Below are positions 2,763 through 25,256 of a stretch of 28,139 nt of DNA, in pieces. Source of the DNA: Candidatus Baldrarchaeota archaeon (lineage in GTDB: Archaea > Asgardarchaeota > Baldrarchaeia > Baldrarchaeales > DXJG01); NCBI GenBank assembly GCA_019056805.1, contig DXJG01000017.1:1-28139 (forward strand), written 5' to 3'. The notes under the pieces were generated by a model that was not told the DNA's origin, searched no databases, and was given only the letters and a program-made list of their open reading frames with translations. Numbering within the stretch: the first letter of the stretch is position 1; each line of letters begins with the position of its first letter. The position numbers and the translations under genes were made by a program.

Positions 2763-4370
2763 TTAAGAACAATAACCACATAACTTCAAAACCATATGCT
2801 CAAATCTCAGTAAAACATCTATAAAAGGAGCCAACATTTTAATTTTCCCAAAAATATTCCTCAAATTATCAATATCCTCCTCTTTAATCGCTCCCATGAC
2901 TGGTACTAAAACCAAATAAAATCCAACAAAAATCATCACAGCTAAAAACAAGTTAACTAAACAGCCAAACAAAGAAAAATAAGTAACCACCACAAAAACA
3001 GGAATTGCCGATAGAAAAGCAGCCAAATAAATCTTCACAACACTCTTCACGTCAAAACTCATACCAAACCTACACACAGCAACCCGCAACGCATACGCCA
3101 GCGACGTAACACCCGATATAATCATCGACACAATTAACCCCGGAACACCGTAAAACATTGTCAAAACCAAACCCAAAGGAACCCCAACAAAACAATTCAT
3201 CAAACTAATCCTAAAACTTATCTCCGTTCTACCAATTCCATTAAAGAAACTACTGACTACTAACGAGAATCCTATGTAAAGATAAGTTAAAACTAGCAAC
3301 GTCAAGAAAAACGGTGCCAAACTATACTTCACGCCGTAAAGAAAATAAACCAAGTCCTTAGAAATCAACGCAACAAGCATAGACGCCGGAACAATAACCA
3401 ACAAAATATACTTCAACGAATACCTAAAAAACTTCCTCAACTCACCTCTTTCCTTATTCAAATCAAATTTTGAAAAAGCAGGAAACAAAGCCGTAGATAT
3501 CGGAATCGCCAAAACACTAAGCAAAGAAAGAAAATTAGAAGCAACCATATAATTTCCTATCTCAAAATCTGAAGTAAACCACGCCAACACCATAGACCGA
3601 AACTGGCCTAAAAAGCTCAACAAGAGAACAGAAGAATAAAGAGGAACACCAAACCTAAACATAAAACGCAAATCCTCAAAAAAATTAAACTTCAAACCAG
3701 GATTACTATGCTCCCTATAAATCCTATAAACAATCAACACACCCAACAAACCCGCCACAACATAACTCACCATATGACCAACAAGCGCACCCATAATCCC
3801 AAAACCCAAAACAATAAGAAGTGGCGCCAAAACAACCTTCACAACAGACTCCGTCACCGAAGTCGCCGCACTCAACTCCATCCTATCCAAACCAACAAAA
3901 ACACTCTTAGTCGTGTTAAACAGTATCTGACAAATAATCAACAAAGACACTAATCGAATAAAAAACCCTATACCCGGCCTCTTCAAAACATACAAAGCAA
4001 AAAAATCTGAAAAAACAAACGAAACCAAAAAAAGCAAACATCCTACCGACAACTTAAACAAAAACCCATTTCTAATCAAACTCGCAACCCTAGCTTTCTC
4101 CCCTTCAACCCTGAACTGAGCCAAATACTTAATCAAAGCAGAATTAACACCAAAATCAGCAAACAATAACAAAAACCCGGGAACAATCAAAGAAACAGAA
4201 TACAAACCATAACTATCTGGACCCAACAAACGAGCAATAATAATCGAAGCCAACGCCAAAACAAATGTCGCAACCGTACTCCCCGTGAAAAGAAACAAAC
4301 CACCCCTAACAGAAACCTCCGCAACCTCCACAATCTTATTCAACGACCCCCTAGAATCATTTGCACTCAT
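2763..4370 (-). CDS. Wzx-like oligosaccharide flippase (MOP/polysaccharide biosynthesis exporter family)
   Basis: ~535 aa, ~14 hydrophobic segments, IARLLGPDSYGLYS, FADFGVNSALIKY and LFPAFS motifs. ATG 4370 follows GGTGGTGA (the ORF track extends to GTG 4385). Confidence 0.93.
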   Translation of the reverse strand: MSANDSRGSLNKIVEVAEVSVRGGLFLFTGSTVATFVLALASIIIARLLGPDSYGLYSVSLIVPGFLLLFADFGVNSALIKYLAQFRVEGEKARVASLIRNGFLFKLSVGCLLFLVSFVFSDFFALYVLKRPGIGFFIRLVSLLIICQILFNTTKSVFVGLDRMELSAATSVTESVVKVVLAPLLIVLGFGIMGALVGHMVSYVVAGLLGVLIVYRIYREHSNPGLKFNFFEDLRFMFRFGVPLYSSVLLLSFLGQFRSMVLAWFTSDFEIGNYMVASNFLSLLSVLAIPISTALFPAFSKFDLNKERGELRKFFRYSLKYILLVIVPASMLVALISKDLVYFLYGVKYSLAPFFLTLLVLTYLYIGFSLVVSSFFNGIGRTEISFRISLMNCFVGVPLGLVLTMFYGVPGLIVSMIISGVTSLAYALRVAVCRFGMSFDVKSVVKIYLAAFLSAIPVFVVVTYFSLFGCLVNLFLAVMIFVGFYLVLVPVMGAIKEEDIDNLRNIFGKIKMLAPFIDVLLRFEHMVLKLCGYCS

Positions 4371-4451
4371 ATTACTAATCACCACCCAAAACCGTACATG
4401 TCATTCAAACACTCCATCAACAACCTACTAAATTAACAACATGCAACAAAA

Positions 4452-6125
4452 CTAGCTCATAAGATAAACCAAATAGGTATTTCCTGCATCAAAAACACGA
4501 TTCGAGCCAACAAGCAAAGAAGCTTTTTCCAAACTTTCAACTGCTAATGAAGCATCAACATAAAAATATGGGAAAGCGTAAAGTCTAGGGGAAAAAACAA
4601 TCAAACCAGCATACCTATAAACTTGATCTGCAGGTACACGACTAAACCAAATGAACTTCGATGCCCTAATACTACTATTATACTTCACAGCAAAAAACAT
4701 AAACTGAGGAACATCTTTATCAGGAACAATAACCCTCCTAGAATCACCATAAAAACAAATAACATACCTATAAACCTCTATTTCAGAACTAGAAGGATGA
4801 TAAAAGGAAACAATTGAAAACTTAACCAGAAAAGAACAAAACAACAGACCAAAAACAGCAAACAACAATAGAAACCTACCAAAAACCTTAACCACTCTTC
4901 CCCCAACCCTAAGAAAACTAAAGGAGAAAGGTAATGTTAAAGCTAAAGGCAAACCAACAAAAATAAAAAATCTATCATAAACACCAGAAACACCAAAAAA
5001 CACCAAAGGAAAAACAAAACAATTAGAAACAATCCACAAAAGCAAAAACCTACCAGAAACATTCCTGCAACCCTTTACAAAAACATAAAACAACACGCAA
5101 ATAAAAATCAAAATCGTTTCTAAAAAGCCAAGAAAAATCTTCAAAACAACAATAAAACGATAAGAAGGAGAAAAAACTTCAAGAAAACCAAAAGAAAAAA
5201 CATAAAACAAAAACTCAACACCCTTAGCAGAAACAACATTCCAAACACGAAAGACATACCCTAAAATACTCAATTTCAAAAAATCCATCAAAAACCACAT
5301 AAAACCAGAAAACAAAAAAACGAGAAAAACTCTAACAAAAAAGCTTCCAAAACCCAGAAACGAAAACCAAAAAAGAAAGTTCACACCCAAAACAACAGGA
5401 GTAAGGGGATGAACAAAAAACAAACATAACAAAACAACACCAAAAAGAAAAATCCAGGAAAAAACCTTCCTAAAAGACTTATTACCACCACGAACAAAGA
5501 TTTTAGAGGAAATTAAACACCCGACACAGTAAAGCATGAAAGCAAAGGCCTGACGGCAAAAATGATCTTGATGAGCCCAATAAAAACTCATGAAAAAAAG
5601 AACAGAAAAGCCAGCAAATCCCTCTTTATCTAATTTCCTAAAAATACAATAAACCAAAACACTAGTAAAAATATAGAATAGGAGGCGAAACCACTTCATC
5701 AAAAACCAAACATCAAAACCAGAAACGAGACAAAAAACACTCCATACAATTAAAAACCCAGGACTTTCGTGCCCATGAGCAAAAACACCACCCCCACCCC
5801 TCAAAAAATCAACGACACCAGCACCATAAAAATAAACATCAGAAAACCAAGGATTAACAAACAAACCTTCAAAAGTCAACCAAATAAAAAACACCAGCAA
5901 AAAACTTGAGAATTTCCTCAAGAACCCAAAGCCAAACAAAACAGCATATAAAAGAACAATAACACCAAACCAAAACACAAAAGACAAACCGGAAAGAACA
6001 ACAAAAACACCGGGAGACAAAGAATCAAAAGAACGAAAAGAAACAAAAACTTCAAAAATAGCCAAAAGCAAACCCAAACAAAAAATAACAAAACAAAAAG
6101 AAAAACTGTATTTCAACCAATACAC
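4452..6125 (-). CDS. Polytopic membrane protein with a C-terminal soluble domain; candidate glycan polymerase or GT-C-like transferase
   Basis: 557 aa with more than 10 TM segments and polar loop motifs (SDVYFY, HESPGF, HQDHFCRQ, FVHP). Lies next to the flippase. Function is inferred. Confidence 0.7.
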   Translation of the reverse strand: MYWLKYSFSFCFVIFCLGLLLAIFEVFVSFRSFDSLSPGVFVVLSGLSFVFWFGVIVLLYAVLFGFGFLRKFSSFLLVFFIWLTFEGLFVNPWFSDVYFYGAGVVDFLRGGGGVFAHGHESPGFLIVWSVFCLVSGFDVWFLMKWFRLLFYIFTSVLVYCIFRKLDKEGFAGFSVLFFMSFYWAHQDHFCRQAFAFMLYCVGCLISSKIFVRGGNKSFRKVFSWIFLFGVVLLCLFFVHPLTPVVLGVNFLFWFSFLGFGSFFVRVFLVFLFSGFMWFLMDFLKLSILGYVFRVWNVVSAKGVEFLFYVFSFGFLEVFSPSYRFIVVLKIFLGFLETILIFICVLFYVFVKGCRNVSGRFLLLWIVSNCFVFPLVFFGVSGVYDRFFIFVGLPLALTLPFSFSFLRVGGRVVKVFGRFLLLFAVFGLLFCSFLVKFSIVSFYHPSSSEIEVYRYVICFYGDSRRVIVPDKDVPQFMFFAVKYNSSIRASKFIWFSRVPADQVYRYAGLIVFSPRLYAFPYFYVDASLAVESLEKASLLVGSNRVFDAGNTYLVYLMS

Positions 6126-6265
6126 CTAGCACTCTAACTTTTTAACATACGTTTGTTGCTGCATTTATAACCTCCATCTTCGTGGCTAGAAAAGCATTGC
6201 TAGCATGCTTAATTAATTCGGTATTGGATATAATAACCTTTAACAATGGAGGAATATTTTTCACT

Positions 6266-7696
6266 TTATGAGTGTAACTTAATCCTAAAAATTCTGTACT
6301 TCTCGCTATAATTCATTCTTTTTATCAGAGTAGGGGACTGATCGTAAAATACGTTAAGGGATTTACCGTCTGTATCATGAGGAAGAGGCAATCCTAAGCA
6401 CGTAAGTATTGTGGGAACTATATCATATACACTTATGTTACCGATTCCTACATTCTTTAATAAATCGTCACCGTAAGCTATGAATATTCCGTCCTTATGA
6501 TGGTCAACATGGTTATAGCTTATCAACTCATTTATTTCGTTAGAACACCAGCTATCTTCCCTAGGGACACATATCAGATCTGGCGCGTAACTCACGTAAG
6601 GCCCCCAGTATATGTCCTGTGAGTAATAAATTCTCTTGATATATGGAATCTTAGAAAGAATTTTATATACTTCTTCGCATGCATTTTTACTAACACAGTA
6701 AATGCCCCATGAACCGTTTTCTATCATGAAGGCCTTAGAACGAGCGTAATCTACTGTAATTTCCTTTGATAATAACTTCCTGAGAATCCTCAGTCCATAT
6801 TTTACAATTTTATTCTGCAACGGCTTAGGCAGCAAATGCAACCTAGTCTCTTCCACAAATGGTGTTATTTTAGGTTTATTAGTAACTGTAAGAAGCCCGT
6901 AGTCCCTTAGAACAGCGTTTACTTGGACAACATATTTATAAAATTTAAAACCATGATCAGAAACTACAAAAATAACTTCGCTATTTTCATGCAACTTTTT
7001 AATGTACTCATCTATAATGTTAAATATTCTGGCGACCTTGTTAAGACCTCTACCGAATTGAAGCTCTGGAAATCTATGTTGGATCCAATCAAGCTCACTG
7101 AAAACTATAATGAATAGGTCCCAGTCAAAATTTTTTATAAGATCATATAAGGCGTTTCCTTCTAGCTGGAGATTCTCTACAAGCATGTTAACGTATTCAT
7201 CGTCGCTAATTTTGCTTGAAAACCATATATGAGGGGGCCTTCTCATCAACTCTTTATATTTACTCAGAATATTCTCTGGATATGCTTTAATTTTAGGTGC
7301 TGCCCAGTCGGTCACAACAATATACTTTTTCGGAGATATAGCCTGCAATGGATACGTAAGCGGAACATTAATTACGATACTATTTAAACCATGCATAGAA
7401 AGCATTTCAAAAACTCTAGGATATTTTACTGATAAACTGCTTGCTAAACTAAATTTAAATCCTTTAGAGATTCTTCTTACATCATGAAAACCATATACTC
7501 CGTGCTTACCAGGATTAACGCCAGTAAATATACTTGTCCAAGCTGGCGGGGTGTACGGAGGTATAGTTGATTTTAAAATACCTCTTACGCCATTCGAGCA
7601 TAGTTTCCTCAAATGAGGCATAGCGCCAAACTCAAAGATCGCGTTTAGAAACTTCCAAGACATGCCATCCAGGCCGATGAGAGAGATTTTCTTCAT
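6266..7696 (-). CDS. Alkaline-phosphatase-superfamily, nucleotide pyrophosphatase/phosphodiesterase-like enzyme (paralog 1)
   Basis: LIGLDG, STIPPYTPPAWTSIFTGVNPGKHG (Thr nucleophile region), SELDWIQH, VVSDHGF, DHH. No signal peptide. Confidence 0.92.
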   Translation of the reverse strand: MKKISLIGLDGMSWKFLNAIFEFGAMPHLRKLCSNGVRGILKSTIPPYTPPAWTSIFTGVNPGKHGVYGFHDVRRISKGFKFSLASSLSVKYPRVFEMLSMHGLNSIVINVPLTYPLQAISPKKYIVVTDWAAPKIKAYPENILSKYKELMRRPPHIWFSSKISDDEYVNMLVENLQLEGNALYDLIKNFDWDLFIIVFSELDWIQHRFPELQFGRGLNKVARIFNIIDEYIKKLHENSEVIFVVSDHGFKFYKYVVQVNAVLRDYGLLTVTNKPKITPFVEETRLHLLPKPLQNKIVKYGLRILRKLLSKEITVDYARSKAFMIENGSWGIYCVSKNACEEVYKILSKIPYIKRIYYSQDIYWGPYVSYAPDLICVPREDSWCSNEINELISYNHVDHHKDGIFIAYGDDLLKNVGIGNISVYDIVPTILTCLGLPLPHDTDGKSLNVFYDQSPTLIKRMNYSEKYRIFRIKLHS

Positions 7697-8325: not shown

Positions 8326-8331
8326 ATTAAA

Positions 8332-9498
8332 TTATTCAGATTTGAGAGCTTTTCTATAAACAACGGCAGTCTCCCGGGCTGTTTTCTCCCAAGTAAACTT
8401 AAGAGATCTTTCGTAAAGCTTGTTACCCAAATATTCGATACATCTTGGATCATTTATCAATTCAAGTATCCTTATAGACAGAGCTTTATAGTCTAATGGA
8501 GAAACATAAATGCCATATTTGCCGGCGATCTCATGGAATGTTGGTATGTCAGATACTATTACTGGTTTTGCACAACTCATAGCTTCCAGCACAGGCATAC
8601 CAAAGCCCTCATGCCACGAAGGATAAACAAATACGTCAGCGGCGCAGTAGACAAAGGGTAAATCTGCTTCCTTGACGAAGGGGATAAATACAACATAACC
8701 TCTAAGATGAGGGTCTTTGTTAACAATTCTGCCAAATCTTTCAAGATGACCCGGACCAGCCAACAAAAGGCATATTTTGATGCTTTTCTTCCTTAACTCA
8801 TGTATTGCACGAATTATTGTCTCAACATTTTTAAACGGTACAGCTGCTGATAAATGTACTACTATTTTTGTATTATTTTTTATATTAAGGGAGTATCGCT
8901 TTTTGATATATTCGAGAGAATAATTTTTATCAATCCTTCTAAATATACTATGATCAACGCCATGATGTACCACAAACACCTTATCGGGATTTATATGAAG
9001 CTTTTCTACTAGAATTCGTTTGCATTCATGCGAAACAGCAATGATGGCATATAATGGCTTTACAAGTTCTCTCCAGTTAAAGATAGCCAAAGCCCTAAAA
9101 CCTAAAGTAAACGGGGCGTAACTCCTTATGTGCGATTTCATCTTGCGCCAGAGATTTGGTGGGAGGATGAAGGGATAAACTCCGTGATTGGTAATCACCG
9201 CGGGGACTTGAAGATCCAGAGCTCTTAGTATGGAAAGTATTAATGGCGGACCTTGATTGATGAACGGTACACCTAAAGGACCGATATCGGTTAGATGAAG
9301 TAAGTCAACATCCTTAATTTCCCGAAGAAAGAGGAAGTTACGATAAAGAAAATATTTCCTGAAATTAAATTCCGTGGTATCCAATATTACAGGTTTGTAT
9401 CCGTACTTTGGAAGTTCTTTCGTCAAGTTCTCTGTGTATCTTCTTATACTCAAATGAGTTCGTTTCTTATCAAATATTATGCCAAGTTTTATTGGCAA
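8332..9498 (-). CDS. GT4 (GT-B fold) glycosyltransferase
   Basis: VVHHGVD and ADVFVYPSWHEGFGMPVLEAMSCAKPVIVSD (E-x7-E motif). Confidence 0.95.
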   Translation of the reverse strand: MPIKLGIIFDKKRTHLSIRRYTENLTKELPKYGYKPVILDTTEFNFRKYFLYRNFLFLREIKDVDLLHLTDIGPLGVPFINQGPPLILSILRALDLQVPAVITNHGVYPFILPPNLWRKMKSHIRSYAPFTLGFRALAIFNWRELVKPLYAIIAVSHECKRILVEKLHINPDKVFVVHHGVDHSIFRRIDKNYSLEYIKKRYSLNIKNNTKIVVHLSAAVPFKNVETIIRAIHELRKKSIKICLLLAGPGHLERFGRIVNKDPHLRGYVVFIPFVKEADLPFVYCAADVFVYPSWHEGFGMPVLEAMSCAKPVIVSDIPTFHEIAGKYGIYVSPLDYKALSIRILELINDPRCIEYLGNKLYERSLKFTWEKTARETAVVYRKALKSE

Positions 9499-9525: not shown

Positions 9526-10407
9526 TCACTTTTTAGCTTCTATCATAATAAGCGGCAAGAACTTTTTGTAGAAGGTAAGTATTATTGGAAAAATGAAATC
9601 GATGCATGATAGTAATTTTAAGGGGTAAGAAAATCTGCTGAAGACCCACATAAAATCTTGAACTCTTTGTTTTATCTTTACTTTCGAAAAGCCTGCTTCA
9701 AGAAAGAGTCTTTCTACTGCCTCCTTAGAAAAACCTTTTTTAGCATGTATGTCAGCTAATTCTTCCAAGTTTCCCAGATTTTTAAATCTTATTGCCTTCT
9801 CTAGAAGATGCCGTAAGAATGCTCCTTTATATCTTTTCATAAAATATCTTAAACAGAACTTGTAATACAGTAAATTTAGAAATTTAAAGATAGGACCTTT
9901 TTCATAAACTTTTCTCAACTCATATATATTTGGCTCATGAAACGCTATGAAATATCCACCTAGGACTAATATACGATTAACTTCATAAATAAACTTACGA
10001 AGATTGGGCAAATGATGAAGCAAAGAATACGTAGTCACAATATTAAATACACATGACCTAAATGGAAGATTTTCTACATCAGCTCTGATAAAATTCACTT
10101 GGTTTCTACGATAAAATAATTTTTCTTTAGCTTTTAATAGCGATTTACTAGAAATATCTATTCCTACATTAAATTCAAAAATCTCCACTAATTTTTCAAG
10201 AACATTACCTGAACCACAGCCTAAATCAATAGCTCTTTTTATATTTTTCGACAGACACGCTAGTACTTTGGTTATGTGATAGGCTTCAAAAATGTTAAAA
10301 ACTTCGCTATGTAGGAATTCGTAACTATCAAACATATTAAACTTCTCAATATTTGCTTTTTTTACTAAGTATTCTAGGCTATGTTCCTTAAATCCTTTTT
10401 TTGACAT
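9526..10407 (-). CDS. Class I SAM-dependent methyltransferase
   Basis: AIDLGCGSG motif I, VGIDIS, ADVENLPF, SLLHHL, RILVLGG. Confidence 0.93.
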   Translation of the reverse strand: MSKKGFKEHSLEYLVKKANIEKFNMFDSYEFLHSEVFNIFEAYHITKVLACLSKNIKRAIDLGCGSGNVLEKLVEIFEFNVGIDISSKSLLKAKEKLFYRRNQVNFIRADVENLPFRSCVFNIVTTYSLLHHLPNLRKFIYEVNRILVLGGYFIAFHEPNIYELRKVYEKGPIFKFLNLLYYKFCLRYFMKRYKGAFLRHLLEKAIRFKNLGNLEELADIHAKKGFSKEAVERLFLEAGFSKVKIKQRVQDFMWVFSRFSYPLKLLSCIDFIFPIILTFYKKFLPLIMIEAKK

Positions 10408-11575
10408 AAGACATTATCCTCTTTGTAATGCTAGAGGCTGAGAAGTAGTTTATTATAAAGTAGCGTGCTCTCCTGGCATGATTTAATATATAGGAGAAGT
10501 TCCGTATCAGATAGATTATTGTTGAAGCTAGTTGCTCAGGTTCGGCAGACTTGGCAAGAACTATCGCTTTTTTGCAATCAGTACTTAGACCGGCAATCCA
10601 CCTATGTCCTGGGAGGTCAGTTACTATAACTGGTCTGCCCACAGCGAGGGATTCTACTAATTTTGTTGGACATTGGTTCTTCCACCAAGGTTTGTCCGGT
10701 AGGGGAACTATGCACGCATCCGCAGCATATATGTATTTCGGAACCTTCTCATAGCTAACCGGCGGGAGGAAAATGACATACTGATCAAGAGAGCTACCAT
10801 AGACATACTCCATTATTTTACTTTTGTCAGGTCCTTCACCTAAGAGAACAAGCACAACTTTCTTTGCATGGTATCTCTCATTTACAAGTTTTACTGCCTT
10901 TATTGCTTCAAGGAGTCCTCTATCTAAGGTGATCGAACCGTGGTAAAGTACTACAAACTTGTCCTCAATGCCAAGTTTCTTCCTCAAATCATAGCTATTC
11001 TTTATCGAGTTCTCTAGAAAAACCTTCTCGGAGATAGGCGAAGGCATGACAAACAGTTTGCGAGCGGGAATTCCCACTTTCCTTGAAATATTTATACACT
11101 CTGGAAGGGATATTGCGGTAACTAAGTGAACTATGCGTTTTATTAACACAAGCGTCGATAAAAAACGTAGCTCCGTTAATATTCCTCGTATCCCCTTCTT
11201 ACCTACTGGGACACTTATCACATTAAGCACGAAGAGCGGCTTACTATTCAGAAGCAGGTAAGGGTAAAGGAGTACAGCAGGGATCGCTGTTACATCGTCA
11301 AAAAATACGATATCAGCACCTCGGCCTAGAATTAAGAGGTACTTTGTAGATTTAAAAAGAAAGTATAACCAGGAAATCACCGGAAGATCGCGTTTAATCT
11401 CTATGCAATTCAGAATTAATTTTTGGTTGAGATATTGCCTAGTCTTTGACCTACTGCTTGGTATAATAGCGTATGTATAGTTACTGAGTTTGCTAAAGAC
11501 CTTTAACAAGCTTAATAAGGAGGCGCCATGCAAAGTGTCAAGCAGTTTCTCGCTCCATATAACGAGGCACTTCAT
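10388..11575 (-). CDS. GT4 glycosyltransferase
   Basis: VLYHGS...RGLLEAI, LGEGP, ADACIVP...PTKLVESLAVGRPVIVTD. Overlaps both neighbouring genes. Confidence 0.92.
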   Translation of the reverse strand: MKCLVIWSEKLLDTLHGASLLSLLKVFSKLSNYTYAIIPSSRSKTRQYLNQKLILNCIEIKRDLPVISWLYFLFKSTKYLLILGRGADIVFFDDVTAIPAVLLYPYLLLNSKPLFVLNVISVPVGKKGIRGILTELRFLSTLVLIKRIVHLVTAISLPECINISRKVGIPARKLFVMPSPISEKVFLENSIKNSYDLRKKLGIEDKFVVLYHGSITLDRGLLEAIKAVKLVNERYHAKKVVLVLLGEGPDKSKIMEYVYGSSLDQYVIFLPPVSYEKVPKYIYAADACIVPLPDKPWWKNQCPTKLVESLAVGRPVIVTDLPGHRWIAGLSTDCKKAIVLAKSAEPEQLASTIIYLIRNFSYILNHARRARYFIINYFSASSITKRIMSYVKKRI

Positions 11576-12288
11576 AGACTCAACCTGCTGATAAATTTTA
11601 TTATCTTTTTGTAATTTTTGTAGACCGAGGAATTTTGTGTGCTTAGGTACATCAATGGCACTTTACCCTTATATGCCCTAAATAAACATCTCCCGAGAAC
11701 TCTCATAAAATTTACATACTTTCTCTCCTCAGGAACGGACTTTCTGTTGAGGTATCTCCTTAGTAATTCATCGTACTCTGCATCAAGAATGATTGTGGCT
11801 GAATTTTTAAACTGTAAAGCTAAGACAAAATCAAGGAGCATTCTTGCTATATATAGTATTTTTTTGGTACTAGTTACGACTTTAAAGAAGTAAAGCGAAT
11901 CAGCATAAAAGTGCCAAAGAAATCTGTCGGCAACTATGACGTAATTTAAGAGTAAGAAGGGTAAAACCTTTACTGTATATACTATTAACGTTGAAACGAA
12001 CTGCAAGAGAAACCAGAGATTCTTACACCTCCTGATAACAGGTGCCAGAGGTACTTTCACCTTATACCCGAGAGGAAGCTTTCTGAACTCGCAGTAACTG
12101 GTTTTTGAGAAAAGCTTTTTTAGGAGATAGATTATGAAATGGTCAGTTCTTATACTGATCTCCCTTATCTTACAACCTTTTTCTCTAAGATAAGGAACTA
12201 ATAGCCTTATATGTGTGGTTTTTCCGACTCCTTCTGGACCATAAAATGCTATGATTTTAATAGTTTTGGAACTCATGTCACAAAGCAC
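11572..12288 (-). CDS. Thymidylate-kinase-like P-loop kinase (paralog 1)
   Basis: IAFYGPEGVGKTT Walker A, VIVADRF, IILDA...RYLNRK lid-like region. The real start may be ATG 12276. Confidence 0.85.
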   Translation of the reverse strand: MLCDMSSKTIKIIAFYGPEGVGKTTHIRLLVPYLREKGCKIREISIRTDHFIIYLLKKLFSKTSYCEFRKLPLGYKVKVPLAPVIRRCKNLWFLLQFVSTLIVYTVKVLPFLLLNYVIVADRFLWHFYADSLYFFKVVTSTKKILYIARMLLDFVLALQFKNSATIILDAEYDELLRRYLNRKSVPEERKYVNFMRVLGRCLFRAYKGKVPLMYLSTQNSSVYKNYKKIIKFISRLSL

Positions 12289-17421: not shown

Positions 17422-18843
17422 CTAAAGAGCGTGTCTAATATTCCTTTTCCCTATCGATGCTGTCTTGATCTTTTTAATGACCTTCCAATAGCTTACATAA
17501 TCTCTTTTACCATGTAATTGAACACCGAGTCTTTTACACAAAGATTTCACATTTCCATCCGTGTCGTGGGGTATAGGTAGGCCTAGAAGGCTCAGTATTA
17601 AAGGAGCCACATCCCAGGTCCTTAGCTTCATAACATGTTTATCAACATCTAGGTCTTTCCCTGCTATTAGTGTTATGCCCTTCAGGCTGTGTGTTATGCT
17701 AGAGTCTAAACCATAGCCTAACTTTGGCCAAACTATTAAGTCGGGAGCTCTTTTTATATAAGGACCGTAGTAAAGCTCATTTGGAGTATAGACGTTCAAA
17801 GCACTACATTCCTTCAGTATGTTTATTACTTTCTTCTTCAAGGTAGGAGCTGTATATATGTATCCTGGGTCGGGCAGTAGAACCTCACAATCCTCATACT
17901 TTAAAGAGTGGAAGGCTCTGGTAGTCTTCTTTCCTATATTTATTCTCTTAAACAATCTTTTTGCATAATGCCTAACTTTAGGATGCCTTAATATTTTAAT
18001 GAAGCAACCCGGTATATGTAATGTCCTATTTCCAATCACTTTAAATGCTACCCCAGCCTCACCTAGCCTCCTACATTTCATATTAGATTTTTCTAAAATA
18101 CTTTTAAGATCGATAGCGTTAGAATTGAGACTAAATCCATGGTCTGAAACTATGAGTAAATACTCTGCAGTTTCATAAATCTCCCTAATAAATGAATCTA
18201 TAAGTTTCATAAGTCTGGATGCTCGAGAAGTAATGTTTCCAGACAGTATTTCTCTTCCCTCTTCATGCATTAGCCAATCAGTTTCACTAATTATTACGAA
18301 AAGTAGATCATAATCGTACTTTGCGAGTTCTAACACGCCATTCAAAAACAACTCGGTTTTATTTTCCTCCAATTTTCTATTAACATCAAAATAATCCTTA
18401 TATTTTTCAAATCGTCGAGGGTATATCGTTAGTTTGGGGCCGATCCAGTCAGAAACTATAATTGCGTTTCTAGCAGTTGTAAAGTTAGCTGGATACGTCA
18501 ATGGCAAGTTAATAATTATACTTTTTAATCCATAAAAATCTACAATTTCATGTAAACGAGGATACATAACATCGAATATTGTAGCAAATCTTACATGATA
18601 TTCTTTAGCTGTTTTTGTTACTATATAAAAACTAAATATTCCATGTTTTCCCGGATTAACACCTGTAGCGATACTCGTCCAAGCTGGAGGCGTCCAAGGA
18701 GGAATCACAGATTCCAATACCCCTTTTGCGGAACTGGATAATAGATTCTTAAGAAAAGGCATAACACCATTGTCGATAAATCTGTTGAGGACTTCCCAAG
18801 AAACTCCGTCAATACCTACGACAGCAACTTTGTTATTTCTCAT
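17422..18843 (-). CDS. AlkP-superfamily NPP-like enzyme (paralog 2)
   Basis: VVGIDG, SVIPPWTPPAWTSIATGVNPGKHG, SETDWLMH, IVSDHGF. Clearly homologous to 6266-7696. Confidence 0.92.
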   Translation of the reverse strand: MRNNKVAVVGIDGVSWEVLNRFIDNGVMPFLKNLLSSSAKGVLESVIPPWTPPAWTSIATGVNPGKHGIFSFYIVTKTAKEYHVRFATIFDVMYPRLHEIVDFYGLKSIIINLPLTYPANFTTARNAIIVSDWIGPKLTIYPRRFEKYKDYFDVNRKLEENKTELFLNGVLELAKYDYDLLFVIISETDWLMHEEGREILSGNITSRASRLMKLIDSFIREIYETAEYLLIVSDHGFSLNSNAIDLKSILEKSNMKCRRLGEAGVAFKVIGNRTLHIPGCFIKILRHPKVRHYAKRLFKRINIGKKTTRAFHSLKYEDCEVLLPDPGYIYTAPTLKKKVINILKECSALNVYTPNELYYGPYIKRAPDLIVWPKLGYGLDSSITHSLKGITLIAGKDLDVDKHVMKLRTWDVAPLILSLLGLPIPHDTDGNVKSLCKRLGVQLHGKRDYVSYWKVIKKIKTASIGKRNIRHAL

Positions 18844-19033: not shown

Positions 19034-20077
19034 TTATCTTTTGAAATGCTTGAAGAATATTTTCAATAAAAGCCATACGTACCCATATGACACTATAATT
19101 CTACATGAAATTACAAAGAAACATGTTATCAGTTTCATAATCCACCCCCTAGTTGTAATCAGGTAGTACATTATTGATGGTAACATGTATAGAAGAATTA
19201 ACAACTGATGAGTAACCAGTGCAAAAATCACAGCAATCGGTAAAATGAAGTAATATATTAGTCGTAGCGTGTAAAAAATATCCCCCTCCTTTACGAACTC
19301 ATGAACAGGTCTTTTTGGAAATCGATAAAAGTAGTAATGGAGAGTTGACTTAAAATAGTTCCACGTGCTTTTAACATTCTTTTTTCTAAGATTAAAATTT
19401 GTTTTCACGTCATTTCGGCGTAAGTGTATGCAATGAATCGTGTTATCGATTAATATTTTCCAACCTGCCTTACGAATCCTCACGAAATGCGCAGCTGCTT
19501 CCCAACTATCAAAGGGATACCCTCCTTTTTCGTAAAAGGGGCCCATAGCTTCTATTACCTCTGGACGAATTAACGAGGAAGTATGTTCTGCAGATTCAGC
19601 ATATCCATATCTCTTTGGTAATCTACTCATATATATCTTTTCGATGAAAGTAGGATTTTCCCTTACATTAGGAGCGTGGGCCCATCCAATTCTCGGATCT
19701 CGGTAAAAGTGTGATAGTAAGGTTTTCAATATTCTTGGAGGCACAATAACGTCACTTTCAGCCCAGAAAACAAAACCTTTCTTGTATTTTAAACAAACAT
19801 TTCTTACATGACCTAAACCTTTCTTACAAGTTCGGTCTATTATGATACTTTCGTATTCTGACTTAAATTTCTGTTTGAATTCTTTAAGCATCTCATAAGT
19901 CCCATCAGTAGAGCAATTATCAACAAAGACAAGTCGTAAAAGGTTCTTCGGATAATCGATATTATATAAGGCTTTAAGTGTATAGTTTAGACACCATTTG
20001 CTATTATAGACTGGCATGCAGATAGTTATGAACGGTAGGCTCTCTTGAGGATCCATGACCAACATCCAGTCTTTCAT
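19034..20077 (-). CDS. GT2 glycosyltransferase with C-terminal membrane helices
   Basis: ITICMPVYN, FVDNCSTDGT, FWAESD (variant DxD), C-terminal hydrophobic segments. Confidence 0.92.
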   Translation of the reverse strand: MKDWMLVMDPQESLPFITICMPVYNSKWCLNYTLKALYNIDYPKNLLRLVFVDNCSTDGTYEMLKEFKQKFKSEYESIIIDRTCKKGLGHVRNVCLKYKKGFVFWAESDVIVPPRILKTLLSHFYRDPRIGWAHAPNVRENPTFIEKIYMSRLPKRYGYAESAEHTSSLIRPEVIEAMGPFYEKGGYPFDSWEAAAHFVRIRKAGWKILIDNTIHCIHLRRNDVKTNFNLRKKNVKSTWNYFKSTLHYYFYRFPKRPVHEFVKEGDIFYTLRLIYYFILPIAVIFALVTHQLLILLYMLPSIMYYLITTRGWIMKLITCFFVISCRIIVSYGYVWLLLKIFFKHFKR

Positions 20078-20259
20078 TTTACAACATGGTTTTGAACTAA
20101 CATTATGATATTGCTAACTAAGCACTTCGAAGCAACTTTATCAATAGTTGAAATCATATGTTATTGTAAGGCTGTCTATGTTATCATCTTACGTAGATAG
20201 GCTACTATCTAACCTTTGTTATGACTGGTAAAGTTCTGAGAGATCATGTAGGGGTCTCG

Positions 20260-21261
20260 TCACAACGCCTTTATATATCTCAAAATTATTCCTATACCCT
20301 TGATGTTGGTTAGTGGTAATTTGATTATTTCGTTTAGCGTGTTTTGTTTGTTTTGTAGTCCTTTGGTTATTTTTTCAATGTAGCATTTGGTGATTTCTAG
20401 TAAATTTGGCTTGTATGGTGGGTAATTATTTTCTACATTGCTAAGTAGGATCTGGCTGGTGTTCGTTGAACCACCTATTAGAGTTTTTAAATATTGTTCT
20501 GTGAGGTTAAGTGTTGAGGTGAGGCCCTCGGTTTCAGCTAGCTTGATGAGCCTTTCTCGCGATTTTAGTTCTCTTAATCTGTAGTGAATGTCAAGTATGT
20601 CTGCTAAGTTTATCCTTAGTTCCTTGAGTATAGCGTGGGCGGCGGTTATAAGTGTGGAATATTCTATTGATGGTATGGGCAGTTTGATATCCACGTCGTT
20701 GTGTCTCACTTTGATGAGGTACTTACTTTTTAGGACGTTTTTTGTGTTTACATAGCTTATACTTGATGCTGCTAGTTTATAATGCACGTCTACCATTAGA
20801 TTTACGCCTTTTACATATTTGTATAGAGTTGTTTCTGCGGGCCCCCATCCTTCCACCTTTAGGTTTAGCTCTATCTTTAGCAACTTAATGAGTTGCTTGT
20901 ATTGGCTTTTTTCAACTAAAAGGTCGATATCGTCTCCAACGTAGATGAAAGGCTTGATAGTTTTGACGACGACTAGTTCGATGTTATGTTTTTTGGCTAG
21001 CTTACATATACTGTCCAATAGTATCAGATCTAGTACGAGTTTTTTCCTTAGCTTTTTTTCTTTTCTCCTCAGGGGACTTGGTAGGTTTATTGGGATTTCT
21101 AGTTTTTTTATTTGTTCCATAAAGAGTATTAACACCTTATTTTTGGATGAGAGCTCGGCTAGGGTTTTAAACTTTGTTCTTATGGCATTTTTTTCATTGT
21201 TTGTTAGCTCTTCTTTTGTTAGTGTTTTCATTAGGAGTTTTGTTAGGGTTAGAGGTTTCAT
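20260..21261 (-). CDS. Nucleotidyltransferase family protein (DNA pol beta fold)
   Basis: VVKTIKPFIYVGDDIDLLV with a D-x-D pair, later VDVHY and AAHAI. ATGA overlap with the upstream GT4. Confidence 0.8.
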   Translation of the reverse strand: MKPLTLTKLLMKTLTKEELTNNEKNAIRTKFKTLAELSSKNKVLILFMEQIKKLEIPINLPSPLRRKEKKLRKKLVLDLILLDSICKLAKKHNIELVVVKTIKPFIYVGDDIDLLVEKSQYKQLIKLLKIELNLKVEGWGPAETTLYKYVKGVNLMVDVHYKLAASSISYVNTKNVLKSKYLIKVRHNDVDIKLPIPSIEYSTLITAAHAILKELRINLADILDIHYRLRELKSRERLIKLAETEGLTSTLNLTEQYLKTLIGGSTNTSQILLSNVENNYPPYKPNLLEITKCYIEKITKGLQNKQNTLNEIIKLPLTNIKGIGIILRYIKAL

Positions 21262-22457
21262 TTTACCGTCTTTAGGTAAAGGTTTATGTGTTTTTTCGCT
21301 ATGCTACTCCAGTTATGTTGTTGTTTGAGGATTTTCATTTTCCTTTTTAGGGCTTTGCAACTTTTTTGGTTTAATAGGATCATCTCCACGGCTTTTCTTA
21401 ACTCCTCTTTATCATTTGGTTTTATCAATAGCATGTAATCTCTGTATTCGAGGAATCTAGGCATTTTGGTTGCTATCACAGGCTTTTCGTGCGCTATGGC
21501 TAGTGATAGAGGCCCACTTGCGGCTAGTATGTTTTCATCGAGATAGTTGAGGATTACAAGGTCAGCTTTGACGTGTAAATATTCGATTATTTTCCAGGGG
21601 TTGTTTATGAATAACTTTATTTTGTCTTGTAGTGCCATTTTGTTAATTTTGTTGATAATTTTTTTGAGGTATTTTGGGCTTTCTGGTGATGTTACGGGGT
21701 TGCATGAGCCAGCGATTATTAGGTTTAAGTTTTTTATGTTTTTTGAAATAGTATTGAATGTTTCGATTATTATTTCTATTCCTTTGTCGGGTCTTATGGT
21801 GCCGAATGTTAGGATTGTTTTTTTAGTTTTTTCTTCATTGTACTGTGTGTGTTTTGTCTGGGGGATTCCGTGCGGGATTACATAGAGCTTTTTCTCTGGG
21901 ATTCTGTATTCGTTCGTTAGTATATGTTTCATTATGTTGAGGTGGATAATGATAGCGTTAGATAGTGCGCATAGGATTTTTATGTAGGTGAATGCGAACA
22001 ACTTAAATAATGTTATTGAGAGTTTTGTTTTGTGGAATTTTTTGAAGTTATTGGTTAGGGTTTTAAGCGGTGTGAGGCCGTGTAGGGTTATTATGATTTT
22101 TTTGTTGCTGATTTTTAAGAGTAGAAGTAGTAAGAGTAGGTGGGTGGATTTTAATCCCCGTCCATAGAGCCAGTATTCGTGATGTACATGTAATAACTTT
22201 ACGTTGTCTTTGACTGCTTGTTTGAATACTTTAAACGGATATATTATAGATTTATGGTTCCATGAAAATTTTACGGTTAAGTTCTTTTTGATTTGGTTTG
22301 TGGTAGGCTTTGTAATGGAAGGGGGTCTGTGTGCGTATATTATGATTTTGAGGTTCTGTGTTATTGAAGATATGTTTGTGTAAAGGTATTTTGAGTAGTC
22401 AGCTAACCCACTTAGTTCGGGGGGGTAACTGGTTACTACTCCTATTTTAAAAGCCAT
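21258..22457 (-). CDS. GT4 glycosyltransferase
   Basis: SYPPELSGLADY, VIPHGI, FGTIRPDKGIE, ASGPLSLAIAHEKPVIAT. Confidence 0.92.
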   Translation of the reverse strand: MAFKIGVVTSYPPELSGLADYSKYLYTNISSITQNLKIIIYAHRPPSITKPTTNQIKKNLTVKFSWNHKSIIYPFKVFKQAVKDNVKLLHVHHEYWLYGRGLKSTHLLLLLLLLKISNKKIIITLHGLTPLKTLTNNFKKFHKTKLSITLFKLFAFTYIKILCALSNAIIIHLNIMKHILTNEYRIPEKKLYVIPHGIPQTKHTQYNEEKTKKTILTFGTIRPDKGIEIIIETFNTISKNIKNLNLIIAGSCNPVTSPESPKYLKKIINKINKMALQDKIKLFINNPWKIIEYLHVKADLVILNYLDENILAASGPLSLAIAHEKPVIATKMPRFLEYRDYMLLIKPNDKEELRKAVEMILLNQKSCKALKRKMKILKQQHNWSSIAKKHINLYLKTVK

Positions 22458-23392
22458 ATTGCTAAGACTCCGTAGATAAATCCTACTACGACTGTGGCTG
22501 TGAATAATATTGATAATGCCATGTGGATAAGTGTTCTTTTAGGCTTCTCGAGGAGATGTTTGGGGTATTTGAAGGCTAGTTTTTTAATTATTTCTTTGAG
22601 GTATTTACGTTCCACATTTAACGTTGTTGACTCTTCGTATGTCGTTTTGAGCAATGCTTTGGTTATGCCTTGGTTGAAGGCTCTTTTAATGAGATAGCTC
22701 AGCCTTATTCTATGTGCCAATATTCTATGGTGAATTATGGCTTTTGGATTGTATAGTATACCTTTGTTAAACTTTTTTAGACATCTGATGCAGAATTCTG
22801 TTTCGTCGCCCTGTGTTAGTTTTTCCCTTTTAAGTCCTAAGTTTTCGTTGAATAAACCTATGATGTTAAAAATTTCTCTCTTGAAAGAGATGTTTGAACC
22901 AAATGTGTTACGTACTTCGGTGATATTATTGGAATGCAGGGGGTTCGAGGTTAATCCGATGAGCCAGTAGAATTCTTCGGGTAGCCACCATGGTATTTTT
23001 CCCAATGGATATATAGGACCTCCTATGCCATAGGATGATGGATATTGGTTGTAGGTTTTCACTAGTTCTTCTACCCATTTGCCGTCAGCTATAGCATCGT
23101 CGTCCATAAAGCAAACGATTTCACCTTTTGCATTTAGGATGCCAAGATTCCTACTTGTTGAAATCCCTTTTTTACCTGAGTTGAGGAGCAGTCTAATGTT
23201 GTTTTTAGCTATGTTTTTCATTTTTTTGTGGAGTGTTTTGTAAAGTTTATGATTGTTATCTACGACCAATAATATTTCTATGTTAGGATATGTTTGTTGT
23301 AGTATGCTGTTTATTGCTTCCACTAGAAATTTTTTGTTTTCAGATTTATGAGTTGTTATGATGACCGAGACCAGGGGTTGTTGTGTTTTCAT
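22442..23392 (-). CDS. GT2 glycosyltransferase resembling haloarchaeal AglG-type hexuronosyltransferases
   Basis: VSVIITT, FMDDDAIAD, WLPEEFYWLIG, RNTFGSNISFKRE, GDETEFC. The AglG likeness is from recalled motifs and substrate is not established. Confidence 0.88.
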   Translation of the reverse strand: MKTQQPLVSVIITTHKSENKKFLVEAINSILQQTYPNIEILLVVDNNHKLYKTLHKKMKNIAKNNIRLLLNSGKKGISTSRNLGILNAKGEIVCFMDDDAIADGKWVEELVKTYNQYPSSYGIGGPIYPLGKIPWWLPEEFYWLIGLTSNPLHSNNITEVRNTFGSNISFKREIFNIIGLFNENLGLKREKLTQGDETEFCIRCLKKFNKGILYNPKAIIHHRILAHRIRLSYLIKRAFNQGITKALLKTTYEESTTLNVERKYLKEIIKKLAFKYPKHLLEKPKRTLIHMALSILFTATVVVGFIYGVLAIWLLK

Positions 23393-23410
23393 GCTCTGGT
23401 TTCTATAAGT

Positions 23411-24118
23411 TTATGTTAGTATCCTTATGATGTTCAGATGTGTTTCAGCTATGTTTTTGTTATCGGTTTTTTCGATTGGTACGTTTAATATTTTGGCTAT
23501 TTTTTTGTATAGTAATCTTTGGATTTCTATTAATTGGCGGGGTTCGCATATGTTGTTTCGTCTATTTTTAATGGTTTTGTAACTTGAATCTAGCATTATT
23601 AATTTTGTCTTGTCTTTTGCGAGTATTTTTAATAAAGTTTTCACGGGTATGCTTTGTAAGATCTCGAGGCTTTTTGTGGCTATTGTCATGTGGATTATTG
23701 TGTCTGGCAGATATCTGTCAGCTATTATTGTATAGCCAAAAAGTCTAGGTATATATACGTTTATTATCAGTTTAGTGATAACACTAATAAGTTCTAGCCA
23801 TGACCAGATGGTTCGACTTATACTGTTTGAGTAGGCAAGTATATGTGTAATTATGGCATTGGTAGGGAGTCTTAGTACGCTTTGTGGTGATATTTTTTCT
23901 AGGAATTTTAGCATGATGTAAGCTAATGTGTGATTATTCTTTATCCAGACATGTTTTACTTTAAACCCTTTTCTCTTAAGTTTATATGCCAGTAGTCTAG
24001 CATGTGTGGTTTTTCCAGCACCATCAGGGCCGAATATCGAAATAATATGGACTCTTCTTCCTACATGTGATGATATAGGTTTGTGAATGCCTTTTTGATC
24101 GTGAGGAAATGTTGGCAT
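23411..24118 (-). CDS. Thymidylate-kinase-like P-loop kinase (paralog 2)
   Basis: ISIFGPDGAGKTT and IIADRY. Start placed at ATG 24118 (235 aa, matching paralog 1). The longer ORF call overlaps the real gene 24190-24510. Confidence 0.83.
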   Translation of the reverse strand: MPTFPHDQKGIHKPISSHVGRRVHIISIFGPDGAGKTTHARLLAYKLKRKGFKVKHVWIKNNHTLAYIMLKFLEKISPQSVLRLPTNAIITHILAYSNSISRTIWSWLELISVITKLIINVYIPRLFGYTIIADRYLPDTIIHMTIATKSLEILQSIPVKTLLKILAKDKTKLIMLDSSYKTIKNRRNNICEPRQLIEIQRLLYKKIAKILNVPIEKTDNKNIAETHLNIIRILT

Positions 24119-24189
24119 GTCTGTATGACTTACGTTAGTTATGGGGATAGTAAAATAGATTTTGGAGAATTGAGAGTGTTCGTTATGAT

Positions 24190-24510
24190 TTATGTTTCTT
24201 TTTCTTCTTTTGTTTCTTGGGTTTCTAATTGTTTTAGTTCTTGTTCTAGTTCTTTTTCTATTTCTTCTATTGGTTTTGGTGGTGGTGTTGTTGCGAGGGT
24301 GTAGCCTATCCATGCTAGAATGAATAGTACTGCGGTCATTGCTAGCCATACTATTGTTATGGGTATGGTTATTAGGTTGATGTTTGGTGTTGGTATTATG
24401 TTTTGTAGGTTTGGAAATAGGATTAGTAGGAATCCGTAGACTGTGTATAGTATCCATATTATTATCGCTGCAACGAGCATGCCTCCTCCTATAATTCTAT
24501 CTTTACTCAA
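24190..24510 (-). CDS. Small two-TM membrane protein with a TTPPPKP + acidic coiled tail; DPM2-like candidate
   Basis: 106 aa: two hydrophobic helices, then AWIGYTLATTPPPKPIEEIEKE. Starts 27 bp downstream of a Dol-P-sugar synthase-like GT2. Confidence 0.8.
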   Translation of the reverse strand: MSKDRIIGGGMLVAAIIIWILYTVYGFLLILFPNLQNIIPTPNINLITIPITIVWLAMTAVLFILAWIGYTLATTPPPKPIEEIEKELEQELKQLETQETKEEKET

Positions 24511-24536
24511 AACTCATTCACCTCTACCTTTCTTTT

Positions 24537-25256
24537 TTATTTTGGGGTTGGTTTTGTTATGGCTGTTTTTAGGTTTGTGGTTATGTTTTTTATTATTTGC
24601 AGTGCTATTATTATTCCGTGTTTTATTTTTAGTTTTTTCATACCTAGACGTTTTCGATATTTTATTGGTATTTCTATGATCTTTTGTTTAAGGCTTTTTA
24701 TATAGTTGTTTATTTCTACTTCTATTTCGAAGTGTTTTGACATTGGTTTCCAGTTTTTTATTGTTTGCCATTTTATTGCGCGTAGTCCTGTTAGGGGGTC
24801 TTTCATTTTTACTTTGTTTAGGTAATGGTGTAGTGTTTTTAGTATTAGGTTTCCCAGACCATATATATCTGTTAGGTAGTTTTTTAGGGTGTGGGTGTGG
24901 AATCTGTCTCCTGTTACCATGCCTACGTCTGGGTTTTTTTCTAGGATTTGTATCATTTTTGCTGCTGGTTTTGCTGGGTATGTGTGGTCTCCATCGGTTA
25001 TTATTATGTATTTTGGGTTGTGGTTTTTTTGTTTTAGGTGTTGTATTGCTGTTTTTATTGCGTTTCCTTTTCCTTTTCCTTTTTGTTGTATTACTTCTGC
25101 TCCTAGGTTGCGGGCTATTTGCTGGGTTCCGTCGGTACTTCCTCCGTCTACTACAAGTATGTGGGCGTTTGGGAAAACTTTTTGGTATTCTTTTATTGTG
25201 GGTCCGATTCCGGGGGCTTCGTTTAGGGTTGGTATTATGATGGTGAGTTCGGTCAC
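24537..25256 (-). CDS. DPM1-like GT2 (polyprenol/dolichol-phosphate glycosyltransferase)
   Basis: IIIPTLNE, VVDGGSTDGT, GKGNA, ITDGDHTY, GDRF, DPLTGLRA, FEIEVE, EIPIKYRKRLG. Soluble 239 aa. GTG start after GGAGGAGG. Confidence 0.92.
   Translation of the reverse strand: MTELTIIIPTLNEAPGIGPTIKEYQKVFPNAHILVVDGGSTDGTQQIARNLGAEVIQQKGKGKGNAIKTAIQHLKQKNHNPKYIIITDGDHTYPAKPAAKMIQILEKNPDVGMVTGDRFHTHTLKNYLTDIYGLGNLILKTLHHYLNKVKMKDPLTGLRAIKWQTIKNWKPMSKHFEIEVEINNYIKSLKQKIIEIPIKYRKRLGMKKLKIKHGIIIALQIIKNITTNLKTAITKPTPK

Follow-up and report, generated by a model that had tools for sequence, protein, structure and literature searches.

A candidate sulfation and phosphate-decoration toolkit in a glycan assembly cluster of a Baldrarchaeota archaeon

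What would a long row of glycosyltransferase (GT) genes need with two enzymes of the alkaline phosphatase (AlkP) fold, two kinase-like proteins, a nucleotidyltransferase and a methyltransferase? This question is raised by a gene cluster of Candidatus Baldrarchaeota archaeon (GenBank assembly GCA_019056805.1) at positions 2763-25256 of contig DXJG01000017.1, here called C8. The window that we analysed is this entire contig of 28,139 nt, and the genome comprises 1.92 Mb in 18 contigs, with about 36% G+C and 91% completeness. The cluster holds 18 genes, all on the minus strand, made up of 17 large open reading frames (ORFs) and one small one, and such a row on a single strand is far beyond chance. 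Guided largely by matches to Pfam and NCBIfam models, we assign five GT4 and three GT2 glycosyltransferases, one Wzx-type flippase, two polytopic membrane proteins, two PF01663 proteins, two thymidylate-kinase-fold paralogs, one PF14907 protein, one S-adenosylmethionine (SAM)-dependent methyltransferase and one small ORF with two transmembrane (TM) segments.

A first-pass annotation, made from the letters of this DNA, had described one co-oriented cluster with eight glycosyltransferases, a flippase and two membrane proteins, and every countable point of that description is right. The overlapping stop and start codons that it had reported are present at four junctions (11572-11575, 10388-10407, 21258-21261 and 22442-22457), and, as it had also said, no nucleotide-sugar synthesis gene lies within the window. 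Nearest relatives of the window proteins are archaeal, and an AglB/STT3 oligosaccharyltransferase is encoded on contig C6. The locus is a genuine, unusual archaeal glycan cluster rich in tailoring genes. The explanation that we favour for it is a surface-glycan assembly cluster equipped with a sulfation module and a phosphate-decoration module; taken as a whole, this explanation is held tentatively, with a probability that falls slightly short of one half.

The two PF01663 proteins, NPP1 (476 amino acids (aa), 6266-7696) and NPP2 (473 aa, 17422-18843), match their family far above its cut-off of 23 bits, with scores of 120.1 bits (E value 2e-34) and 114.9 bits (8e-33), respectively. An alignment to phosphonoacetate hydrolase, from which the site residues were mapped, places a Thr nucleophile (T49) and a complete bimetal site (D10, D203, H207, D247, H248 and H399) in NPP1. 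All seven of these AlkP/nucleotide pyrophosphatase (NPP) site residues are retained in NPP2 and, truncated copies apart, in 32 of the 32 copies compared. Neither protein has a TM segment or a signal sequence, and their sequences suggest that both are cytoplasmic members of a large archaeal PF01663 clade whose proteins are annotated as 'alkaline phosphatase family protein'. Their nearest characterised sequence relatives are hydrolases, such as phosphonoacetate hydrolase.

Members of this clade keep distinctive company. The same genome carries seven PF01663 genes, five of which are on contig C17, where an operon at 301396-308070 (L025:5396-12070) encodes ATP sulfurylase (sat), a PF01663 protein and adenosine 5′-phosphosulfate (APS) kinase (cysC), together with two further PF01663 paralogs. 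This operon, whose expected product is 3′-phosphoadenosine 5′-phosphosulfate (PAPS), adjoins DUF1616 genes, an ABC ATPase gene and genes for large unannotated membrane proteins, and a second flippase gene lies on the same contig at 285547-287157. This part of C17 probably represents another glycan region of the genome, one linked to sulfate. The sat/PF01663/cysC trio also occurs in Pyrodictium delaneyi, along with TauE and two GT-adjacent PF01663 paralogs. In another locus (L031), the order is TauE, sat, a DHH gene, three PF01663 genes and a sulfatase-like gene, and Thermococcus camini has one PF01663 copy 1 kb from sat and another inside a GT/flippase cluster. A five-gene PAPS cluster with the order copG, sat, DHH pApase, PF01663 and cysC has been described in Pyrococcus yayanosii (PYCH_17520-17560), and Thermococcales carry the PAPS operon without an identified consumer (PMC8268124).

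The distribution of the clade across genomes follows that of sat. Among 81 Thermococcales genomes, 58 have both the clade and sat, none has the clade only, two have sat only (one of these a broken sat) and 21 have neither. At least two copies are present in 27 of the 60 sat-positive genomes, and zero copies are found in 21 of the 21 genomes that lack sat. The extra, GT-type copies in Thermococcales usually lie 6-30 kb from sat. Among 151 genomes of the phylum to which the window belongs, the corresponding counts are 57 with both, five with the clade only (three of them in genomes that are at most 90% complete), 17 with sat only and 72 with neither.

In a phylogenetic tree, the copies sandwiched between sulfate-activation genes form their own clade (100/100 support), and NPP1 and NPP2 are placed in GT-adjacent clades. 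NPP2 groups with paralogs from the sat/TauE neighbourhoods of Pyrodictium and L031, and NPP1 is 48% identical to a protein (P0004) whose gene adjoins a GT4 gene and has TauE close by. Loci of this kind hold two to four diverged PF01663 paralogs, usually each beside a glycosyltransferase gene. NPP1 and NPP2 thus resemble the P. yayanosii system in that their genome has the sat-PF01663-cysC operon and in that they are paralogous to its PF01663 protein, with the same seven site residues. They differ from it in belonging to other clades and in residing among glycosyltransferase genes rather than beside sat, each with a gene for a large membrane protein following.

Because the clade is genomically tied to sat, cysC, TauE and DHH pApase, a sulfated glycan is at least as likely a product of the locus as a phospho-decorated one. 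The first-pass annotation had recognized two NPP-like enzymes and had placed them in a phosphoryl-handling toolkit; the PF01663 assignment with an AlkP fold and a Thr nucleophile stands, but the clade is tied to sulfate activation and not to phosphate. Canonical sulfotransferases are missing from the genome, in that no PF00685 match was found and no PF13469 match exceeded the cut-off. The one family that might indicate whether PAPS serves assimilation, PAPS_reduct (PF01507), is too broad to tell. To our knowledge, archaeal glycans are often sulfated, but a sulfotransferase acting on them is known in haloarchaea only. These haloarchaeal enzymes are Agl30 and Agl31 of Halobacterium salinarum (VNG1056C and VNG1057C), sulfatase-like members of the AlkP superfamily that were established as N-glycan sulfotransferases by genetics and heterologous expression (PMC11980604).

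The likeness to NPP1 and NPP2 lies in the shared superfamily, in a setting within an archaeal glycosylation cluster devoid of canonical sulfotransferases and in action, which is proposed for NPP1 and NPP2, on a lipid-linked glycan. A sulfate-activation pathway is encoded in the same genome here as well, by sat and cysC on C17. Read most economically, these data have the GT-adjacent PF01663 paralogs modifying a glycan with activated sulfate, a possibility to which we give slightly less than even odds.

A second module is defined by the two kinase-like proteins, TMPKL1 (238 aa, 11572-12288) and TMPKL2 (235 aa counted from Met114, 23411-24118), which share 27% identity (E value 7e-22). Both carry a conserved P-loop (GPEGVGKTT or GPDGAGKTT) and a conserved (D/E)R(Y/F) motif (ADRF or ADRY). 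Their matches to thymidylate kinase models stay below threshold: PF02223 (Thymidylate_kin), which has a cut-off of 27 bits, scores 20.1 and 19.3 bits, and TIGR00041, which has one of 83 bits, scores 17.5 and 20.7 bits. A word-index protein search with TMPKL1 matched only the query itself, and an exhaustive search with a family profile matched 733 cluster representatives, 275 of them below an E value of 1e-10. TMPKL2 is the best match to this profile in the genome (3e-76). The long ORF of TMPKL2 extends to 24457, and the resulting 113-residue N-terminal extension (24119-24457), the product of an A+C-rich coding strand, is of very low complexity and rich in T, N, K, R and H. Because the family profile begins only after Met114, this extension is probably not translated, and the real start is likely at 24118.

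Structure prediction clarifies the relationship of this family to thymidylate kinase (TMPK). An AlphaFold2 model of TMPKL1, built from an alignment of 95 sequences, has a predicted local distance difference test score of 93, and in Foldseek searches of the PDB, of Swiss-Prot models and of AFDB clusters all of its best matches are thymidylate kinases (template-modelling scores, normalized by the query, of 0.6-0.67). The top 50 PDB matches are all dTMP kinases, except for one adenylate kinase at rank 43. When the family profile was compared by hhalign with the genome's own TMPK, the two aligned with 98.3% probability, and their P-loops and (D/E)R(Y/F) motifs coincided. The segment LFAADR of the genuine enzyme, however, faces the family consensus lW..lE.iS, and the F..DR segment following strand 2, which we take to be the part of thymidylate kinase that binds thymine and dTMP, is therefore not retained. 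At this position, the TMPKL1 model has a helix/beta-hairpin/helix insertion between strands 2 and 3.

The kinase-like proteins therefore have the fold, P-loop and (D/E)R(Y/F) motif of thymidylate kinase (PF02223; for example ST1543 of Sulfurisphaera tokodaii, PDB 2PLR), but depart from it in their sub-threshold Pfam scores, the insertion, the lost F..DR segment, their glycan-locus setting and their domain fusions. A housekeeping dTMP kinase of 201 aa is encoded on contig C9, so TMPKL1 and TMPKL2 are not the cell's tmk products. These proteins represent a diverged, unnamed sister family of dTMP kinase. Of what had been proposed earlier, the nucleoside monophosphate (NMP) kinase-like character survives as far as the fold is concerned, whereas the dTMP-kinase cut-offs are not reached and the thymine segment is replaced. 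The suggested recycling of NMP is unlikely, given the loss of this segment and the fusion of the domain to GT2 or methyltransferase domains in relatives. Two other identities were considered and rejected for the kinase-like proteins: neither sulfotransferases nor APS kinases are among the top 50 PDB matches, and the true APS kinase is on C17. The Pfam scan of TMPKL1 and TMPKL2 gave no match to a protein-kinase family.

The kinase-like family is rare (9 of 400 genomes of the phylum at E ≤ 1e-12), and in every neighbourhood examined that had usable flanks the gene sits in a glycan context. Glycosyltransferase genes are neighbours in the window and in L019, L020, L021, L027 and L028, among others. 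For example, the order in L019 is GT4, kinase, PF01663, GT4 and GT4, and in L020 it is GT2, GT2, GT4, GT4, kinase, nucleotidyltransferase and GT2. In L021, from the same genus, genes for a sugar aminotransferase, WbqC and PIG-L precede a Pol-beta nucleotidyltransferase, the kinase, two GT4 enzymes and a GT2 enzyme. L018 has a flippase, a nucleotidyltransferase and the kinase; L027 has GT2, methyltransferase, an unknown gene, kinase, a nucleotidyltransferase-like gene, GT4, GT4, PF01663 and DUF2206. The kinase-like gene of L028 is flanked on both sides by GT4 genes, that of L029 is a methyltransferase-kinase fusion followed by PF14907, and a further copy (G309:C216) lies beside PF01663.

Across these loci, a Pol-beta nucleotidyltransferase gene adjoins the kinase-like gene five times (L018, L020, L021, L027 and L029) and a PF01663 gene three times (L019, L027 and G309:C216). 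The nucleotidyltransferase-adjacent kinase copies of other genomes are nearer to TMPKL2, and TMPKL1 is the copy that is translationally coupled to a GT4 enzyme and the methyltransferase. Furthermore, three proteins (P0160, P0161 and P0222) join the kinase-like domain to GT2, and two (P0130 and P0244) join it to a SAM methyltransferase, the latter in both domain orders. The recurring core is thus a kinase plus a Pol-beta nucleotidyltransferase, often with a methyltransferase, among glycosyltransferases. Given its confinement to glycan loci, its recurrent neighbours and its fusions with GT2 or methyltransferase domains, the combination of this family with the nucleotidyltransferase, PF01663 and methyltransferase genes is not accidental. 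The central idea of the first-pass annotation, a joint place for these enzyme families in glycan synthesis, accordingly holds: the families co-occur in other glycan loci. We found no paper on a kinase-nucleotidyltransferase module of glycan loci in the literature searched. Genes for radical SAM proteins, two of the three with a SPASM domain, also occur a few genes from the kinase-like gene in three loci (L019:6346-7410, L018:11567-12427 and L028:17977-19077), and the window has none.

The nucleotidyltransferase of the window (333 aa, 20260-21261) passes the PF14907 (NTP_transf_5) cut-off marginally, with 31.6 against 31.2 bits (E value 1.6e-7), and has no second copy in the genome. Close homologs are few, the nearest four of them carry PF14907, and the protein's language-model neighbours in the Atlas are archaeal PF14907 clusters. 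A profile search of the PDB returned only a generic Pol X palm domain, with an E value of about 0.1. PF14907 relatives are the neighbours of the kinase-like gene in L018, L020, L027 and L029. A link to LicD and fukutin, proposed earlier, does not stand at the family level, since the Pfam scan of this protein gave no LicD (PF04991) match at E ≤ 0.01 and the family is PF14907. What is shared with LicD, fukutin and FKRP is a Pol-beta-type nucleotidyltransferase superfamily in a glycan-cluster context, and the analogy is possible at the superfamily level only. PF14907 differs from these enzymes in having no assigned function, and genes of a cytidine diphosphate (CDP)-alcohol pathway are absent nearby. 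A predicted complex of TMPKL2 with the nucleotidyltransferase scored 0.00, which carries no weight either way.

A pairing similar to this one has been reported in a different setting. In one phosphonate gene cluster family, GCF 540, a 'thymidylate kinase' gene and a PF14907 gene flank the gene for phosphoenolpyruvate (PEP) mutase (PMC8942020). What the two cases share is the side-by-side pairing of these gene types. A phosphonate link was rejected for this genome, whose only PEP_mutase match falls below the cut-off.

The remaining genes of the cluster lie on the minus strand as well. The Wzx/MOP-type lipid-linked oligosaccharide flippase (540 aa, 2763-4385; PF01943, 5e-34; PF13440, 4e-31) has about 13 hydrophobic segments. 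The GT4 enzymes are encoded at 8332-9498 (GT4a; PF00534, 4e-27; PF13439, 5e-13), 10388-11575 (GT4b; PF13692, 2e-18), 12564-13619 (GT4c; PF13692, 2e-20), 14126-15319 (GT4d; PF00534, 2e-20; PF13439, 1e-7) and 21258-22457 (GT4e; PF00534, 2e-17). GT4b overlaps the upstream TMPKL1 gene by 4 nt, and the class I methyltransferase gene (293 aa, 9526-10407; PF08241, 7e-19) overlaps GT4b, upstream of it, by 20 nt. GT4e has a 4-nt overlap with the nucleotidyltransferase gene and a 16-nt overlap with GT2b (22442-23392; PF00535, 4e-24). GT2a (19034-20077; PF00535, 3e-15) has C-terminal TM segments near residues 266 and 311. The small ORF of 106 aa, taken from the ORF list, lies at 24190-24510 and has two hydrophobic segments. 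GT2c (239 aa, soluble, 24537-25256; PF00535, 1e-19) is a candidate AglJ/DPM1-like dolichyl-phosphate hexose synthase: its best NCBIfam match is TIGR04182 (AglJ, 1e-46), followed by a dolichyl-phosphate hexose transferase model (1e-23), both under their curated cut-offs.

The polytopic proteins memA (557 aa, 4452-6125; about 13 TM segments and a C-terminal soluble part) and memB (581 aa, 15553-17298) are encoded directly downstream of NPP1 and NPP2, respectively. No Pfam or NCBIfam model matched memA, and no Pfam model matched memB. Their Atlas neighbours are archaeal hypothetical membrane proteins, with small shares carrying DUF2206, PMT_2, DUF6541 or AftA_N. The presence of a dolichyl-phosphate hexose synthase in the cluster would fit an identity of memA and memB as GT-C enzymes. 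No sequence similarity was found among memA, memB and the large membrane proteins encoded beside PF01663 genes in other loci. For this reason, a conserved pair of PF01663 protein and membrane partner was considered and left unsupported.

Together, these observations suggest how the locus might operate. It would be a Wzx-dependent cluster that assembles an archaeal surface glycan, either an N-glycan or an exopolysaccharide, on dolichyl phosphate. The AglJ-like synthase may start or supply the glycan, which seven further GT2 and GT4 enzymes would extend, and the two GT-C-like membrane proteins probably finish it outside the cell. The cytoplasmic PF01663 enzymes, with their Thr nucleophile, would sulfate the lipid-linked glycan by using PAPS or APS from the C17 operon, as functional analogues of Agl30 and Agl31. 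The two TMPK-fold kinases with their remodelled acceptor sites, the Pol-beta nucleotidyltransferase and the methyltransferase would decorate either the glycan or its carrier with a phosphate-based group, which could be phosphate, methyl-phosphate or a substituent of the nucleotidyl/phosphodiester kind. What we observe comprises gene content, folds, the conservation of catalytic residues, fusions and neighbourhood statistics; every substrate and product is inferred from them.

Several points weigh against this proposal. We know of no PF01663 enzyme that transfers sulfate, and the family includes true phospho-substituent transferases, the glycosylphosphatidylinositol (GPI) ethanolamine-phosphate transferases. 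NPP1 and NPP2 lie outside the sat-sandwiched clade, such that their link to sat runs through paralogy and co-occurrence. It is the sat-linked ortholog that dominates the phyletic statistics. The Fisher P values for co-occurrence of the clade with sat are tiny but overstate the association, since related genomes are non-independent samples. The genome is a binned one, in which sat and cysC lie on a contig other than that of the window. Agl30 and Agl31 are arylsulfatase-like and not PF01663 proteins; the comparison is one of superfamily membership only. The GT-C-like character of memA and memB comes from language-model neighbours only and is a lead, and the acceptor proposed for the kinases, a glycan or its carrier, is likewise conjectural. 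In the P. yayanosii cluster, the PF01663 gene product was only speculated to be a pyrophosphatase, and no sulfotransferase was found (PMC8268124). Finally, an N-glycan of Thermococcus kodakarensis carries myo-inositol phosphate (PMC11407970), so that phospho-transfer retains some probability.

That last chemistry is at the heart of the model put forward by the first-pass annotation, which we judge unlikely. In the version considered here, the PF01663 proteins would act like PIG-N, EptA or LtaS, with the Thr passing a phospho-alcohol or sugar-1-phosphate to the glycan, the PF14907 protein would act like LicD, the kinases would phosphorylate the glycan or recycle NMP, and the product would be phosphodiester-decorated. 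Conservation of the Thr/Ser nucleophile and the full bimetal site fits this model, as do the kinase and nucleotidyltransferase, which point to phosphate chemistry, and the precedent of an archaeal N-glycan with myo-inositol phosphate. GPI ethanolamine-phosphate transferases combine an AlkP domain with multiple TM segments, an architecture that is echoed by each PF01663 gene being followed by one for a large polytopic membrane protein, although memA and memB resemble neither each other nor the membrane proteins near PF01663 genes elsewhere. Known phospho-substituent transferases act outside the cytoplasm, whereas NPP1 and NPP2 lack any signal sequence or TM segment. Moreover, their clade co-occurs with sulfate activation and not with any phospho-alcohol pathway, the window has no gene for CDP-alcohol synthesis, and the missing LicD match counts against the model as well. 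A comparably low probability attaches to a supporting role as hydrolases, in which PF01663 proteins would remove pyrophosphate, nucleoside diphosphates, nucleoside diphosphate sugars or breakdown products of PAPS and APS, and so pull the glycosyltransferase and sulfate-activation reactions forward, while the kinases handle nucleotides locally. NPP-family chemistry is the hydrolysis of pyrophosphate and phosphodiester bonds, and the closest characterised relatives being hydrolases favours this role. The sat-linked ortholog has indeed been proposed to degrade pyrophosphate (PMC8268124). Two to four diverged, GT-adjacent paralogs per locus, however, suggest substrate-specific tailoring and not a single housekeeping hydrolysis, and the kinase-like domain, which occurs in fusions with GT2 and methyltransferase, lacks the dTMP-kinase base-binding segment and coexists with a normal tmk.

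Less probable still, in our view, is a terminal cap analogous to that made by WbdD of Escherichia coli O9a. The kinase-like protein would phosphorylate the non-reducing end, the methyltransferase would methylate this phosphate, and chain length would thereby be set. Both systems couple a kinase to a SAM methyltransferase within a glycan cluster: TMPKL1, GT4b and the methyltransferase are translationally coupled here through the 4- and 20-nt overlaps, fusions in relatives show both domain orders (P0130 and P0244), and L027 has a methyltransferase gene two genes upstream of the kinase-like gene. However, the WbdD kinase has a protein-kinase-like fold rather than that of TMPK, and WbdD systems export their product through an ABC transporter. 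The Pfam scan of the window proteins found no ABC transporter at this locus, which has the Wzx flippase instead, nor was a coiled-coil ruler domain observed. The methyltransferase is explained equally well if it methylates a sugar hydroxyl.

The contig itself has unusual features. An extreme keto/amino strand skew forms two mirror blocks around a neutral 14-kb core, with a G+T-rich minus strand at 1-6200 and a G+T-rich plus strand at 20200-28139, and its borders lie between genes, in the gaps at 6126-6265 and 20078-20259. The coding strand of the flippase gene has an extreme G+T skew. The skew is greatest at third codon positions, where GC skew (GC3 skew) reaches +0.81 in the flippase gene and -0.68 in GT2c, which argues for a mutational rather than a selective origin. 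Such skewed 1-kb windows number 23 in about 1,900 genome-wide and are also clustered around the C17 glycan/sulfate region. The contig ends (1-182 and 27958-28139) form a 182-nt inverted repeat of 95.6% identity that has no other occurrence in the genome. Instead of being ordinary chromosome, C8 could represent a linear element of its own or a segment delimited by inverted repeats. On the plus strand, beyond the right end of the cluster, two overlapping ORFs of 110 and 140 aa at 25989-26721 look by eye like a ribbon-helix-helix antitoxin and a PIN-type toxin, and a 116-aa ORF at 27496-27846 has, again by eye, a Cys-rich pattern of the Zn-ribbon kind that TnpB proteins typically show in their C-terminal part.

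The current annotations, 'thymidylate kinase' and 'alkaline phosphatase family protein', are misleading for the two gene sets. The kinase-like family is sharply defined and apparently unstudied, and once its acceptor is identified, a new way of phosphorylating a glycan or its carrier would be added to those known. If both modules act as proposed, the cytoplasmic PF01663 enzymes would constitute a new sulfotransferase class with a Thr nucleophile and would be the PAPS consumers that are missing in Thermococcales, Pyrodictium and this lineage, and the TMPK-fold kinase with the Pol-beta nucleotidyltransferase, and often a methyltransferase, would provide a new route to phosphate capping or phosphodiester decoration of lipid-linked glycans, a joint outcome that we rate as rather unlikely to hold in full. 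The GT-adjacent PF01663 paralogs are nevertheless concrete candidates for the missing PAPS consumer, and they are testable in genetically tractable Thermococcus species.

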